Source: an uncultured delta proteobacterium
GTDB taxonomy: Bacteria; Desulfobacterota; Binatia; Binatales; Binataceae
Assembly (NCBI GenBank): GCA_963851325.1
Contig: CAWKOR010000002.1
Location: 709,859 to 773,858 of the forward strand
Direction: 5' to 3'
DNA: 64,000 nucleotides
Made by a program: the position numbers and the translations under genes. Shown one piece after another: positions 19,755 through 24,226 of this stretch; the first letter of the stretch is position 1, and each line of letters begins with the position of its first letter. The notes under the pieces are model-generated. The model was not told the origin of the DNA. It saw only the letters and a list, made by a program, of their open reading frames with translations, and made no database searches.

Positions 19755-20849
19755 ATGCTCAAGCCAATCATCTCGGCCGATTCGCATATCACGGAACCAC
19801 CCGGCACTTACGTCGATCGATGCGATCGCAAGTTTCGCGACCGCGCGCCGCACATGGTTCGCGATCCGAAAATGGGCGACATGTTCGTGGTCGATGGGAT
19901 GGAGCGTCCGGTGCCGATGGGGCTGCTGGCGGCGGCGGGCAAGTCGGCCAAGGAACTCGCGGTGGGCGGCGTGAAGTTCGACGAGATGCATCGCGGCGGA
20001 TGGGATCCGGAGGCGCGCATGGCCGACCAGGATCGCGACGGCATAGCCGCCGAGGTGATCTATCCGACTGTGGGCATGCTGCTCTGCAATCATCCGGACT
20101 TCGACTACAAGAAGGCGTGTTTCGATGCGTACAATTTGTGGATCGCGGATTACTGTTCGGCGCATCCCGATCGCCTGATTGGCACCGGCCAGACCGCGAT
20201 GCGTTCGGTCGAGGAAGGCATTTCCGATCTTCGCAGGATAAAGGAGCTCGGCCTCAAGGGCGTCATGATGCCCGGCAATCCCGCGGTCGCCGACTATCAC
20301 GATCCCATCTACGATCCTTTTTATGAGGCCGCGATCGATATGGAGATTCCGCTGAGCTTTCACATCCTGACCAGCAAGGCCGACAGCTTCACTGCGCGCG
20401 GCCCGCGGCTGAACAATTTTCTCGGCATCATTCGCGGATGCCAGGACATCATCGGCACCTTCATTTTCGGCGGCGTGTTCGAGCGTCATCCGAAGCTCAA
20501 GCTGGTGTGCGTCGAGGCCGACGCCGGCTGGGTGCCGCACTATATGTACCGGATGGATCACGCCTACGATCGCCATCGCCACTGGATGACCGGCGCCACG
20601 CTCTCAAAAATGCCGAGCGAGTATTTTCGCGAGAATGTCTACACCACCTTCCAGGACGACTGGGTCGCGTTCCAGATGAAGGATATGTGCAACATTCAGC
20701 GCCTGATGTGGGCCAACGACTTCCCGCATAGCGATTCGACCTGGCCGTGGTCGCAGGAAGTCCTCGCCAAGCACACCAAGAATCTCACTGAGGCGGAAAA
20801 GAACTACATCCTGCACGATAACGCGGCGGAGCTGTATCATCTGAATTGA
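19755..20849 (+). CDS. Amidohydrolase_2 family protein
   Basis: ISADSHITEP, GVFERHP, WANDFPHSDSTWP. Confidence 0.92.
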   Translation: MLKPIISADSHITEPPGTYVDRCDRKFRDRAPHMVRDPKMGDMFVVDGMERPVPMGLLAAAGKSAKELAVGGVKFDEMHRGGWDPEARMADQDRDGIAAEVIYPTVGMLLCNHPDFDYKKACFDAYNLWIADYCSAHPDRLIGTGQTAMRSVEEGISDLRRIKELGLKGVMMPGNPAVADYHDPIYDPFYEAAIDMEIPLSFHILTSKADSFTARGPRLNNFLGIIRGCQDIIGTFIFGGVFERHPKLKLVCVEADAGWVPHYMYRMDHAYDRHRHWMTGATLSKMPSEYFRENVYTTFQDDWVAFQMKDMCNIQRLMWANDFPHSDSTWPWSQEVLAKHTKNLTEAEKNYILHDNAAELYHLN

Positions 20850-20876
20850 TGAGCGCGGAATAGCTGCGTCAAGCCG

Positions 20877-20914
20877 AAGACCGCCGCCATCGCCAGCGGC
20901 GGTTTTCTTTTTTT
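20877..20914 (+). terminator. Rho-independent terminator
   Basis: ACCGCCGC-CATCGCCA-GCGGCGGT stem followed by a T-rich run. Confidence 0.82.
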
Positions 20915-21008
20915 CGAAGGCGCGACGGATTTTGCCCGCGGCGCGCTACTAATCAATGCGAACCAAAAAACGAAATCGGGGCACCGCGGTCCCAAGCGGG
21001 CTTCAGAG

Positions 21009-21599
21009 GTGGGTTCGCAACGGCGTATGCTGCAAGGTGAGCGCAAGCTGTTCGCGCCGGACTTGACGGTGCCAGACTATACCGAGGGCGACGAAACCTC
21101 TCTGCTGGAGCGGTTGCGACGCGGCGATTCCGCTGCCGCGCGCGAGTTTTATGATCTCTATTCGTCGCGCATCCACCGGTTCATCCTGCATGCGCTCGGT
21201 CCCGGCAACGAGGCCGACGCCGAAGACATTTTGCAGGAAACCTTCATGGCGCTGGCCGAGGCGATTCCATTTTTTCGCGGGCAGAGTTCGCTGTTCACTT
21301 TCGCCTGCGCCATCGCACATCGAAAGACGCTTTCGTTCATCCGAACCCGCGCGCGGCGCGGCGAATTCATGAAGGACCATACTATCGAAGCGGTGCGATC
21401 GATCATCGAGCCGCCGCCCGATCAGGATTTGAAAAACGCCCTCGCGTCGCTGTCATCGGACCATCGGGAGGTGCTGCTCTTGAAATACGTCGAGGACCTA
21501 TCGGTGAGCGAAATTGCGGCGGTGCTTTCGCTGACCGAGCATGCGGTTGAATCGCGGCTGGCGCGTGCGCGCAAGGCGCTGAGCAAAGCGCTCGATTAA
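21009..21599 (+). CDS. ECF-type RNA polymerase sigma factor
   Basis: DAEDILQETF region 2; LSVSEIAAVL...VESRLARAR region 4. Confidence 0.9.
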   Translation: MGSQRRMLQGERKLFAPDLTVPDYTEGDETSLLERLRRGDSAAAREFYDLYSSRIHRFILHALGPGNEADAEDILQETFMALAEAIPFFRGQSSLFTFACAIAHRKTLSFIRTRARRGEFMKDHTIEAVRSIIEPPPDQDLKNALASLSSDHREVLLLKYVEDLSVSEIAAVLSLTEHAVESRLARARKALSKALD

Positions 21600-21609
21600 G
21601 AAACCGGAG

Positions 21610-22064
21610 ATGAAGGAAATGAAATCTCAACACGGTGAGGCTGAAATTGCGCGGCGCCTGAAAGGGACTCGCGGGCACCAGGACGCGGCCTCCACGTGAC
21701 CTGGCGTCGCGATTCGCAGCGCGCCTGAGCGAGGTCGCCTCGCGGCCCGATGTGGTCCCGATTCATCTTTGCGGCGCGAAGCTGGAAGCTCGCGCAGGCG
21801 GTACCCTCCTTGCCGCCGCGGTGAAAAATGGTGTGCGCATGATGCATGCGTGCGGCGCGCAGACGCTGTGCGCGACTTGCCGCGTGAAGGTCACCGAAGG
21901 CGTGGAGAATCTCAGCCCGATGAGCCTCAAGGAGAAAATTTTCGCTCCGATACCACTTGTCGGTCAGCCCTCGCGTGCGGCTCGCATGTCAAGCGCGCGT
22001 GCTCGGTCCGGTCGAGGTCGACGCGGTGTTCCCCTTGTGCGGGGCCTTGCCGGGAGAAGCTTGA
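21610..22064 (+). pseudogene. 2Fe-2S ferredoxin with an N-terminal anti-sigma-like extension (~150 aa), split by two +1 indels
   Basis: ATG 21610 (MKEMKSQHGEAEIARRLK); shift at AAAGGG 21661; ...HACGAQTLCATC...; shift at AAAATTTT 21935-21942; SLRYHLSVSPRVRLACQARV...PGEA, TGA 22062-22064. Confidence 0.75.
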
Positions 22065-22065
22065 G

Positions 22066-22305
22066 ATGGCGTGGCCGGTAAAACTTCGTGCGGCGAGTTT
22101 CGCCATCGTCATCGGCGTGGTCCTGATGGAATCGGCAATCGCGTTGATCCCGATCGGACTGGCCCTGTGGTTTTTCGGAGCGATGAACGCGGCACGGGTG
22201 TTTCGCGTTCTGACGATAGTGGCATTCGTGGTCGCGCTAGCGATTGCGATTCACGGCGACCTCGGTCGGCAGGGTTACCGAAAATGGTGGAGGCTACACG
22301 CATGA
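22066..22305 (+). CDS. Small membrane protein (79 aa)
   Basis: MAWPVKLRAASFAIVIGVVL..., hydrophobic; tightly packed between its neighbours. Confidence 0.7.
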   Translation: MAWPVKLRAASFAIVIGVVLMESAIALIPIGLALWFFGAMNAARVFRVLTIVAFVVALAIAIHGDLGRQGYRKWWRLHA

Positions 22306-22736
22306 AGCAATTGCGATGGATAAAGATCCTGCTGTGGATCCTGGGCGGAGTGTCGCTCATCAACGGTATCGAGATGTTCTTTGCTCCCTCAATTTGGTTC
22401 TTTCGCCTGGTGCCCGGCGTTCCCGAGACCGGTCCCTTCAATGCGCACCTGGTCGCGGACAGCGGAACATTTTTCATTGCGGTGGGAGTCGGGCTGCTGA
22501 TCGCTGGATCAGACCCGAGACGTCATGTCGCGGCGGTGATCGTCGCCGCGATGGCCAACCTGTTTCATTCGATTCTGCACATTTACTCGCATGAGGCGGG
22601 ATTGCTGTCGCTCGAGCATCTCGGCACCGAAGTCGTGGGCATCTACCTCCCGACCCTGTTGTTGATCGCGATTGTGATCGTGCTGCTGCGAAGTCCTGCG
22701 CCTCGAGTTGCTGAAGCGACTGTTCACGCAGCCTGA
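22302..22736 (+). CDS. Four-helix membrane protein with a GPFNAH motif
   Basis: ATGA overlap with the upstream gene; ETGPFNAHLVADSG and FHSILH intramembrane His residues. Confidence 0.8.
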   Translation: MKQLRWIKILLWILGGVSLINGIEMFFAPSIWFFRLVPGVPETGPFNAHLVADSGTFFIAVGVGLLIAGSDPRRHVAAVIVAAMANLFHSILHIYSHEAGLLSLEHLGTEVVGIYLPTLLLIAIVIVLLRSPAPRVAEATVHAA

Positions 22737-22752
22737 AAAAGGAGTGATGAGT

Positions 22753-23331
22753 ATGCGGATTCGACCTCTGGAGCGAAACGAAGCAAGTTTTTCGGCGCGG
22801 CTGCTTTTTTCCATGGTCAAGCGGCAGGTCGGCAAAGTGCTGACGCCGCTGAAAGTGCAAGCGCATCGGCCCGGCATCATGTGGGGATTCGCGATCGCGG
22901 GAATGGCACTGGAGTTTTCCAAGAGCGCCGACAAAATCGTCAAGCGGCTGGTGACGATACGGACCGCGCAAATCGTCGGCTGCCCCTTCTGAATTGATAT
23001 CAACTCTGCCGTTGGCAGAGCAGACGGAATCAGCCTCGAGAAGATTGCGGAGCTGGAGAATTTCGAGCACAGCGCGCTATTCACCGATGCCGAGAAGGCC
23101 GCGCTCCGAATGGCCGAGGCGATGTGCGAACGCAGCGTGACAGTGCCGGACAAGGTCTTCGAGGAAGTACGCCGCCACTTCGACGAGAAGGCGATCGTTG
23201 AGCTCGCCGCGATGATCGCGCTGGAAAACATGCGCGCGCGTTTCAATCGCGCACTGGAGATTCCGAGCGACGGATTTTGCGAGCTTCCTGCGGACCATCC
23301 GGCGATGCGCGCCGCGTCGGCGGGGCGATGA
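22753..23331 (+). CDS. AhpD/carboxymuconolactone decarboxylase family protein with CxxU (probable selenoprotein)
   Basis: RBS AAGGAG. GCPF-TGA(22990-22992)-IDINSAVGR; ORF-track pieces 22708-22992 and 23110-23331 share a frame, and the linker is open and family-like (FTDAEKAALRMAEAM, IVELAAMIALENMRARFN). Confidence 0.9.
23004..23020 (+). promoter_or_regulatory. Candidate SECIS hairpin of the AhpD-like gene
   Basis: Perfect stem CUCUGCC-GUU-GGCAGAG after an 11-nt spacer from the UGA. Confidence 0.75.
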
Positions 23332-23373
23332 CCTCACCCCTAACCCCTCCCCTTGAGGCCTTCAGGAGAGGGG
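23332..23373. repeat. REP-like palindrome related to the 8.3-8.6 kb repeats
   Basis: CCTCACCCC...CCCCTCCCCT-N10-AGGAGAGGGG between convergent genes. Confidence 0.6.
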
Positions 23374-23431
23374 AACCAGAGGTGCGCGGGCTCGGGCCTT
23401 CGTAGTGACAAGGAGACGCCTCGATGGCGCG

Positions 23432-24226
23432 CTATCTTCGAAATTTGCGGAAGTCGGGTTTGCGCTTTTCGAGGAACGCGTTTTTTCCCTCCAGCGCTTC
23501 CTCGGTCTCGTAGTAGAGCGACAGGCCGCGCAAGGCGACCGTGCCGATGCCGCGAATCTCCTCGCTGGGCGCATTGAACGATGCCTTCGCGAGTTTGATC
23601 GCGGTCGGGCTCATTGACGCGATCTTCTTCCCCCACGCCAGCGCTTCGTTCATCAGCTCGGCCGCGGGCACCACTTTGTTGACCAGGCCCATCTCCTTCG
23701 CCTCGGTCGCGGTGAACTGCTCGCACAGATACCACATCTCACGCGCCTTCTTTTCACCGACGATACGCGCAAGGTACATCGTGCCGAAGCCGGGATCGAC
23801 GCTGCCGACCTTGGGCCCGACCTGGCCGAACTTCGCAGTGTCGGCGGCAATCGTGAGATCGCAAATCACATGGAGCACGTGCCCGCCACCGATCGCATAG
23901 CCATTGACCGCCGCGATGACGGGCTTGGGGATGTCGCGAATGATGCTGTGTAAGTCCTCGATGTCGAGACCGAGATCCGAGCGCACCGGATTGCCTTTGT
24001 AGCCGCCCTCTTCGCGCGTCGATTGATCGCCGCCGGTGCAAAATGCGCGGTCACCTGCGCCGGTTAGAATGACCGCGCCGACACTCCGATCAGCCCAAGC
24101 CAGCTTGAAAGCCTCGACCAATTCATCGACGGTCTGCGAGCGAAATGCGTTCAAGACGGCGGGACGATTGATGGTGATAATCGCCACCCCGTCATCGGTG
24201 CGATAGAGAATGTCGCCAAAGTCCAT
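23432..24226 (-). CDS. Crotonase-family enzyme, MenB/BadI-like (DHNA-CoA synthase or beta-ketoacyl-CoA hydrolase)
   Basis: AFCTGGDQ, GYAIGGGHVLHVICD, FGQVGPKVGSVDPGFG, KKAREMWYLC. Confidence 0.88.
   Translation of the reverse strand: MDFGDILYRTDDGVAIITINRPAVLNAFRSQTVDELVEAFKLAWADRSVGAVILTGAGDRAFCTGGDQSTREEGGYKGNPVRSDLGLDIEDLHSIIRDIPKPVIAAVNGYAIGGGHVLHVICDLTIAADTAKFGQVGPKVGSVDPGFGTMYLARIVGEKKAREMWYLCEQFTATEAKEMGLVNKVVPAAELMNEALAWGKKIASMSPTAIKLAKASFNAPSEEIRGIGTVALRGLSLYYETEEALEGKNAFLEKRKPDFRKFRR

Follow-up and report, generated by a model that had tools for sequence, protein, structure and literature searches.

Extracytoplasmic function (ECF) sigma factors paired with anti-sigma partners make up one of the main signalling systems of bacteria, and every further sensor domain among them is a new signal route to RNA polymerase. 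Here we describe one such candidate pair, encoded in an operon of five coupled plus-strand genes (20850-23340) within a 64,000-nucleotide window from the genome of a delta proteobacterium of the family Binataceae (GCA_963851325.1, contig CAWKOR010000002.1, positions 709,859 to 773,858). The genes encode an ECF sigma factor, a [2Fe-2S] ferredoxin with an N-terminal extension, two membrane proteins (mem1 and mem2) and a selenoprotein related to carboxymuconolactone decarboxylase (CMD) and AhpD. The most far-reaching interpretation, to which we give a probability of roughly 0.35, is that the ferredoxin may represent a new class of ECF anti-sigma factor, in which a two-helix clamp is joined to a ferredoxin-fold [2Fe-2S] sensor; the redox state or integrity of the cluster would then gate the sigma factor and so turn on a selenium-dependent defence against peroxide or thiol stress. 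Feature coordinates are collected in Table 1.

In outline, the proposed system comes closest to CnrY, a class II anti-sigma factor of Cupriavidus metallidurans and the partner of CnrH. CnrY is anchored in the membrane and receives its signal from the periplasmic CnrX. PMC7406223 describes its first helix as bound to sigma-4 and the second one as bound to sigma-2, in the manner of helix 4 of class I domains. The likeness lies in a short segment of two predicted helices, the second of which is likewise placed on sigma-2 in our model, with an interface that also takes in sigma-4. In contrast to CnrY, the ferredoxin is soluble and has a ferredoxin domain of its own. No similarity to CnrY was found in the extension, and membership of the CnrY family is not backed by sequence.

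Class I anti-sigma factors (ASDI/ZAS; RsrA, RshA) resemble the ferredoxin in being encoded right after an apparently autoregulated ECF sigma factor and in a proposed redox control of release. Unlike these proteins, the ferredoxin has no four-helix domain, no HxxxCxxC motif and no Pfam match of the zf-HC2 or RskA type, and its metal site is a complete ferredoxin fold located C-terminal to the binding helices, not inside them. Class I membership was rejected for an extension of about 45 amino acids with two predicted helices, no His/Cys motif and no Pfam anti-sigma match.

Anti-sigma factors with Fe-S clusters have precedents in RshA and RsmA, both of which are covered by PMC3427169, a source available to us in part. 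For RshA, the partner of an ECF sigma factor, an Fe-S cluster rather than zinc is reported there, and RsmA of Streptomyces coelicolor (sigma-M) is cited as a [2Fe-2S] anti-sigma factor of the HATPase type. The original prediction, made from the DNA letters of the window, had named Zn-thiolates for the redox-sensing cases familiar to it and had called an Fe-S-sensing ECF switch undescribed; these two proteins are precedents for Fe-S anti-sigma factors. As cited in the same text, RsmA has [2Fe-2S]-dependent anti-sigma binding in common with the system proposed here, but it is a HATPase_c protein (RsbW/SpoIIAB-type) that acts on a non-ECF sigma factor. None of 24 aligned ferredoxin members gave a HATPase_c match, and neither RshA nor RsmA uses a ferredoxin fold.

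The last gene of the operon has described relatives as well. CxxU proteins of the AhpD-like type are established selenoprotein families, AhpD-like 1 and 2 (Zhang and Gladyshev, PMC2398784, available in part), and share the CMD/AhpD fold, the CxxU motif and the existence of Cys homologues with the protein found here. This part of the operon is real but not new. Its placement under an ECF sigma factor together with a ferredoxin differs from those families in that the available text of that paper does not mention such a context. A link between an ECF sigma factor and a CMD-family gene is also found for ECF41, whose sigma factors neighbour CMD genes, carry a fused C-terminal regulatory domain and have no anti-sigma factor (PMC3426412, the part available). 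The sigma factor of the present operon, in contrast, has domains 2 and 4 only. In the literature on ECF sigma/anti-sigma pairs, on CMD context and under the term Binat, we found neither a ferredoxin-type ECF anti-sigma factor nor this operon. In PMC7826278, which reclassified the ECF sigma factors in 2021, the main text contains no mention of ferredoxin, Fe-S, Fer2 or CMD, and the group context tables of that paper could still list such a neighbour. Judged from the predicted complex described below, the system would likely work as an ECF sigma factor with a class II-type anti-sigma factor, here of a ferredoxin type.

The sigma factor (alignment of 27 sequences) and the ferredoxin (alignment of 24) were folded together in three runs, together with three controls. 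For the pair, ipSAE values of 0.79, 0.76 and 0.80 were obtained, against 0.27 for the best control (a margin of 0.52). Of 80 solved complexes, 58 attained the ipSAE mark applied, as did 2 of 110 mismatched pairs; this calibration holds only roughly here because custom alignments were used. At least 79% of the contacts were common to the runs, and the partner pLDDT was at least 75. The original prediction had pointed to a complex of the sigma factor with the extension as a check, and the outcome is in its favour.

On the ferredoxin side, the predicted interface covers residues 10-50 in addition to 62, 96, 99-100 and 131-133, of which about seven belong to the Fer2 domain. On the sigma side it covers residues 36-92 and 105 in domain 2 as well as 136-163 and 188-191 in domain 4. 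The most confident contacts are made by F35, R38, L39 and V42 of the second helix with sigma residues 44-48 and 79-87. All five residues that are invariant in the extension (R16, F35, R38, L39 and P46) are placed in the interface, and in the model the extension acts as a clamp that spans domains 2 and 4 of the sigma factor. By sequence comparison, the partner side is not a remembered complex, since the extension resembles no chain in the PDB (best E 0.1).

Using a profile of the ferredoxin, 80 loci were retrieved, 28 of them from Binataceae-type metagenome-assembled genomes (MAGs) and 52 from elsewhere. The gene order sigma-ferredoxin-mem1-(mem2)-AhpD, with both halves of the AhpD-like gene, is kept in all 28 Binataceae loci; sigma orthologues and mem1 were found in every one of these and mem2 in 26. 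In the remaining 52 loci, which come from Nitrospira, Acidobacteriota, cyanobacteria and further groups, only the ferredoxin core is matched. None of them gave a match for mem1, mem2 or AhpD, and a single one (L047) has a sigma-like match, which is on the opposite strand and 32% identical. Homologues from Nitrospira, Acidobacteriota and other groups align over residues ~46-136 only. Two of the outside loci were inspected; their neighbours are ETF-QO-like or NuoF/IscA-like genes and the extension is absent.

The same linkage was followed at the level of whole genomes. Of 165 genomes of the family (G553, which is unpublished, among them), 44 have the extension, 45 have the sigma orthologue (E<=1e-30) and 43 have both, i.e. 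43 of the 46 genomes in which either was found. The three exceptions (G412, G455 and G539) are fragmentary assemblies or weak, cut-off matches. In a sample of 400 genomes from the phylum, not counting the genome of the window itself, the extension was found in none; 396 of them are outside the family. Among the best 150 matches from 1.84 billion representative proteins, about eight match from profile position 1-5. Within the family, the module is distributed over 8 to 9 of 30 genera. On these locus and genome counts, the extension and the sigma factor form an obligate pair which is restricted to the family and patchy within it. The expectation that homologous ferredoxins would carry the extension and have an ECF neighbour is thus borne out for the family, throughout the 28 loci and in all but three of the 46 genomes.

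Three ferredoxins of 130-153 amino acids from the global library (P0116, P0126 and P0169) match from profile position 23-26, including the second helix but not the first; they may be remotely related and have a shortened form of the extension. In one genome of the family (G541) the sigma orthologue is on contig C28, whereas the extension is matched in part on contig C30, a split which may reflect a rearrangement or a second copy.

The ferredoxin domain itself is well defined. All 24 aligned members match Pfam Fer2 (E 1e-10 for P0003, the closest relative, whose residue numbering is used here), and the best PDB match of the profile is the ferredoxin 1i7h (E 4.5e-14, profile positions 52-129). 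The cluster ligands C81, C87, C90 and C126 are invariant in the 24 sequences, as is an extra cysteine outside the ligands, C143 (FPLCG). The score for TIGR02007 (fdx_isc) is 47.4 bits, below the equivalog cut-off of 132, and the protein is therefore regarded as being of the ISC type but not as the ISC ferredoxin itself.

The extension of about 45 amino acids is present in all 24 aligned homologues with the consensus RFAARLxEVA(S/A)RPD. A low-confidence AlphaFold2 (AF2) monomer model predicts two helices, at residues 7-22 and 29-44. The conserved start of the ferredoxin is probably ATG 21619. A profile search of the extension against the PDB (E<=10) matched 21 chains, none of them an anti-sigma factor; residues 1-48 gave no usable match in the protein Atlas, and no paralogue was found in the same genome (next best E 0.2). 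With no match in Pfam, no anti-sigma factor among the PDB matches and nothing usable from the Atlas, the extension was rejected as a member of a known anti-sigma or helix-turn-helix family, and it should not be read as a DNA-binding helix-turn-helix. The gene in the anti-sigma position had been described earlier as a helix-turn-helix-like segment fused to a full 2Fe-2S ferredoxin. The ferredoxin with its Cx5Cx2C and RLAC motifs and the presence of an N-terminal extension stand, both conserved in 24 of 24 sequences. Read as a DNA-binding helix-turn-helix, the segment finds no support; it is predicted as two helices and has no Pfam match.

A number of points weigh against the ferredoxin being a sigma-binding sensor. 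Binding is supported by the confidence of one predictor, whose mark was also reached by two mismatched pairs, and the sigma side may attract any amphipathic helix because ECF sigma/anti-sigma complexes are common among solved structures. With a mean pLDDT of 58.7, the AF2 monomer model of the ferredoxin is weak, and how the Fer2 domain is placed against the sigma factor is therefore uncertain. For the extension, Pfam gave a match in none of the 24 members at E<=5, and hence no anti-sigma family; it has no HxxxCxxC or other His/Cys motif, and two helices are all that it offers. The promoter discussed below is a conserved motif and not a mapped start site, and the organism is uncultured. Finally, a ferredoxin that adjoins a redox enzyme could be a plain electron donor.

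The last point leads to an alternative in which the ferredoxin works as a plain electron carrier and reduces the AhpD-like selenoprotein, perhaps together with the membrane proteins; the helices would dock it to one of these proteins or to the membrane, and the sigma factor would lack an anti-sigma factor and be under transcriptional control only, through the operon it belongs to. A typical core of the ISC/adrenodoxin type with all four ligands is what such a carrier would have, and it shares its operon with the redox enzyme in 28 of 28 loci; that the extension matches no anti-sigma family and that the monomer model has low confidence agree with it too. Carrier homologues elsewhere, however, do without the extension, which exists only in ferredoxins adjoining this sigma factor, and in the predicted complex it is precisely the extension's invariant residues that lie on the sigma factor, with a score well above the best control. 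The gene also occupies the canonical anti-sigma slot, starting 10 nt after the sigma stop. We regard the plain carrier as unlikely, and on the predicted complex we lean, by a little over even odds, towards the ferredoxin being the anti-sigma factor that binds and inhibits the co-encoded sigma factor.

Binding of the sigma factor leaves the nature of the signal to be considered. The signal could enter through mem1 and mem2, in the form of redox stress of the membrane or of envelope stress, or the ferredoxin could be proteolysed; it could also be a positive adaptor instead of an inhibitor. The conservation of the membrane proteins in the operon would fit the first of these routes, as would a predicted interface made up mostly of the extension, with few Fer2 residues, and the invariant C143 could serve as a thiol switch. 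Yet neither membrane protein has a recognisable cytoplasmic domain of the anti-sigma type, the operon has no protease gene, and a complete, ligand-conserved cluster domain fused to binding helices is most simply taken as a sensor. A signal that does not involve the cluster is slightly less probable to us than the plain carrier. That the Fe-S cluster is the signal is the reading we prefer among these, and we hold it tentatively.

A different objection concerns the gene itself. As assembled, the ferredoxin gene (21610-22064, plus strand) has to be read in frame 1 from 21610 on, in frame 2 over 21662-21940 and in frame 3 over 21942-22064, with changes near 21660-21667 and 21934-21941 and a TGA stop at 22062-22064. 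A truly broken gene, or one read through two programmed +1 frameshifts, would agree with the presence of both shifts in the assembled window and with a +1 break in the ferredoxin of two related loci, L035 and L044. The joined reading, on the other hand, corresponds to intact homologues of 145-150 amino acids. The middle piece matches 97 intact database relatives, mostly of that length, and P0003, which is 95% identical over this piece, is in frame through both junctions.

Contigs derived from Illumina reads of four soil runs (three RNA libraries and one probable DNA run) were aligned to 21000-23400. They represent strains 95-100% alike, and otherwise differ from the window by 0-4 letters. One letter is absent at 21667 in X1 and X5, both of the runs covering this position, and one letter is absent at 21934 in X1, X3 and X5, all three of the runs covering it. 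The second ferredoxin junction is in frame in 26 of the 28 related loci, and the breaks in L035 and L044 fall at base runs other than those of the window. The same long-read-style MAG loci are also broken in the amidohydrolase, sigma and AhpD genes, and the downstream reading frames stay fully conserved. Because the extra bases are absent from the Illumina contigs, the relatives are intact and the breaks in L035 and L044 lie elsewhere, the gene is read as intact in the organism. A pseudogene or programmed frameshifting was rejected on the Illumina contigs and the differing break sites, and we consider it very improbable. Both +1 shifts are almost certainly assembly errors.

A genome of 5.29 Mb in 2 contigs suggests, though it does not establish, a long-read assembly. 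The original prediction had attributed the poor visibility of the operon genes to two indels and a UGA codon; both indels are present in the window and the UGA is real, but the indels arose in assembly. Together, indels in long-read MAGs and a selenocysteine codon can hide three of five genes from annotation based on open reading frames. Among the related MAG loci, L028, L030, L032, L035, L036, L042 and L044 have frame breaks that affect the amidohydrolase, sigma and ferredoxin genes as well as the C-terminal portion of AhpD, which points to indel errors as a general feature of these assemblies. One public protein, P0066, is likewise a ferredoxin copy with a frameshift. The soil RNA libraries contain the operon, which is evidence of its presence only and not of transcription.

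Under the reading we prefer, the operon would be a self-contained, autoregulated ECF sigma/anti-sigma module in part of the Binataceae, with the sigma factor co-translated with a soluble ferredoxin of 147-150 amino acids. In the resting state, helix 2 of the extension (F35, R38, L39, V42) would lie on regions 2.1-2.2 of sigma-2 and helix 1 would point towards sigma-4, so that binding to the RNA polymerase core would be blocked as it is by the two-helix class II factor CnrY. The ferredoxin domain, which touches the sigma factor in the model, would do the sensing, and the hold would loosen once the cluster is oxidised, nitrosylated or lost under peroxide, oxygen, nitric oxide or iron stress. The freed sigma factor would then transcribe from GACGGA-N16-C(G/T)ACTAA before its own gene. 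With its own operon as the only recognisable regulon, this would amplify the sigma factor and supply the AhpD-like selenoprotein and the two membrane proteins.

If this is true, a soluble short clamp with a ferredoxin would make a compact Fe-S transcription switch, distinct from both the Zn-thiolate ZAS proteins and RsmA. The single promoter and the 45-amino-acid binding module may serve as an orthogonal redox-responsive part, and as the genes are five and small, the module is directly testable by heterologous expression. The module is restricted to a portion of a single uncultured family, in which 44 genomes out of 165 have it, and sigma binding is a prediction. We regard the ferredoxin as a conserved and testable candidate for a new sensor class, one that rests on modelling.

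The assignment of the sigma factor to the ECF family (group 4) follows from domains 2 and 4 being its only domains. The Pfam matches are Sigma70_r2 (7.8e-11, residues 48-117), Sigma70_r4_2 (8.7e-16, 139-191) and Sigma70_ECF (2.3e-12, 30-195). In NCBIfam, TIGR02937 is matched with 87.5 bits (cut-off 42.9), and no specific subfamily was found over its cut-off. Comparison with L018 and L020, which have ATG 21027 in common, makes this codon a more likely start than GTG 21009.

Upstream regions of the related loci were aligned, leaving out L032 and L036, in which the sigma match is split. Of the 27 aligned regions, 26 carry a -35-like block, GCGACGGA, two of them with one mismatch, and L017 is without it. 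The block is followed by a conserved -10-like block, CGACTAA, and the spacer of about 16 bases between the two is variable in sequence. The strict pattern occurs once in the 5.29 Mb genome, at the operon, and looser patterns gave three further sites of doubtful meaning. No promoter of the sigma-70 type was found in 20750-23500. This distribution of the motif points to positive autoregulation, with a regulon that would be confined to the operon. The -35-like block recurs once more, as GCGACGGATTTTG, at about 23265-23277 of the window, inside the 3' end of the AhpD-like gene; this copy has no matching -10 block and is probably due to chance.

For the AhpD-like protein, Pfam CMD is matched over residues 44-125 with an E-value of 1.1e-10 when the TGA is read through, as compared to 0.099 for the N-terminal piece alone. 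With its CxxU motif the protein belongs to AhpD/CMD (PF02627), and the earlier statement that the operon ends with a CxxU protein of this type is confirmed. Its score of 125.1 bits for NCBIfam NF053654, 'YciW-related (seleno)protein', is below the curated cut-off of 310, and the protein is therefore a relative and not a member of that family. It would probably act as a hydroperoxide or thiol-selenol oxidoreductase.

We have very little doubt that the TGA encodes selenocysteine, as claimed from the outset. The homologous codon was compared in 26 loci (L031 and L036 were left out as their alignment falls short of the codon) and is TGT or TGC in the seven which do not carry TGA. Criteria for spacing and the loop G of the bacterial selenocysteine insertion sequence (bSECIS) were used as a yardstick for the hairpin. 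The hairpin is kept in 20 of 20 TGA-bearing sequences with 91.4% of cells paired, and its closing pair 25-39 is UA in 11, GC in 8 and GU in 1 of them. The covariation score of 0.171, as compared to a mean of 0.048 after shuffling, was reached in none of 500 shuffles, and in the seven loci with a Cys codon the position of the hairpin is taken by unrelated sequence. The TGA is also covered, with no differences, by two Illumina contigs, X1 record 7 and X3 record 9. The genome also encodes the machinery for selenocysteine with scores over the cut-offs (selB 373.9, tRNA-Sec 69.6, selA 580.1 and selD 387.1 bits).

The loci with TGT or TGC and a lost hairpin (L034, L037, L038, L039, L041, L042 and L044) constitute a natural series of Sec/Cys replacements within the operon family. 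Outside the window, selD of the same genome (G000:C1:3681334-3684288) adjoins selB and has one in-frame TGA, so SelD is probably a selenoprotein itself.

Table 1. Positions of the operon features within the window, in order along the plus strand.
Feature	Position	Strand	Details
Intrinsic terminator of upstream amidohydrolase gene	20876-20907	+	Stem of 12 pairs (8 G-C), followed by T run TTTTTTTCGA; 5' border of operon
Candidate ECF-type autoregulated promoter	20924-20952	+	GACGGA (20924-20929), 16-nt spacer, CTACTAA (20946-20952)
ECF (group 4) sigma factor	21009-21599	+	196 aa from GTG 21009
Ferredoxin N-terminal extension, candidate sigma-binding segment	21610-21751	+	Residues 1-47 (P0003 numbering); one-base assembly insertion near 21667
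ISC/adrenodoxin-type [2Fe-2S] ferredoxin domain	21752-22064	+	Cx5Cx2C...RLAC; one-base assembly insertion near 21934
mem1	22066-22305	+	79-aa hydrophobic protein; membrane-like segment right from the start
mem2	22302-22736	+	144-aa multi-span membrane protein, DUF4345/DUF6632-like; ATG overlaps mem1 stop (ATGA)
CMD/AhpD-like selenoprotein	22747-23331	+	194 aa; active-site motif C79-P-F-U82
UGA selenocysteine codon	22990-22992	+	In GCPF-U; TGA in 19/26 related loci
bSECIS-like hairpin	23004-23020	+	CTCTGCC-GTT-GGCAGAG; loop starts 18 nt past UGA

The five-gene architecture is real beyond reasonable doubt, in the form described earlier: tightly coupled plus-strand genes behind a terminator, with successive gaps of 10, 1, -4 and 10 nt. 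On the 3' side the operon meets a convergent enoyl-CoA hydratase-like reading frame on the minus strand. Upstream lies an amidohydrolase-like gene of 364 amino acids (19755-20849 of the window). Most related loci keep this gene in synteny with the operon, from which the terminator cuts it off.

No Pfam match over the cut-off and no NCBIfam match were found for mem1. The Pfam matches of mem2 to DUF6632 (E 0.0053) and DUF4345 (E 0.021) are both below the cut-offs, and the nearest Atlas clusters carry the name DUF4345 (score 0.95, taken as a lead only). Both proteins were rejected as the anti-sigma factor, since neither has a cytoplasmic domain or matches a family above the cut-off; they may still take part in the signal path. 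Between mem1 and the AhpD-like gene, mem2 was undetected in two of the 28 loci (L030 and L043), and it therefore appears dispensable for the module.

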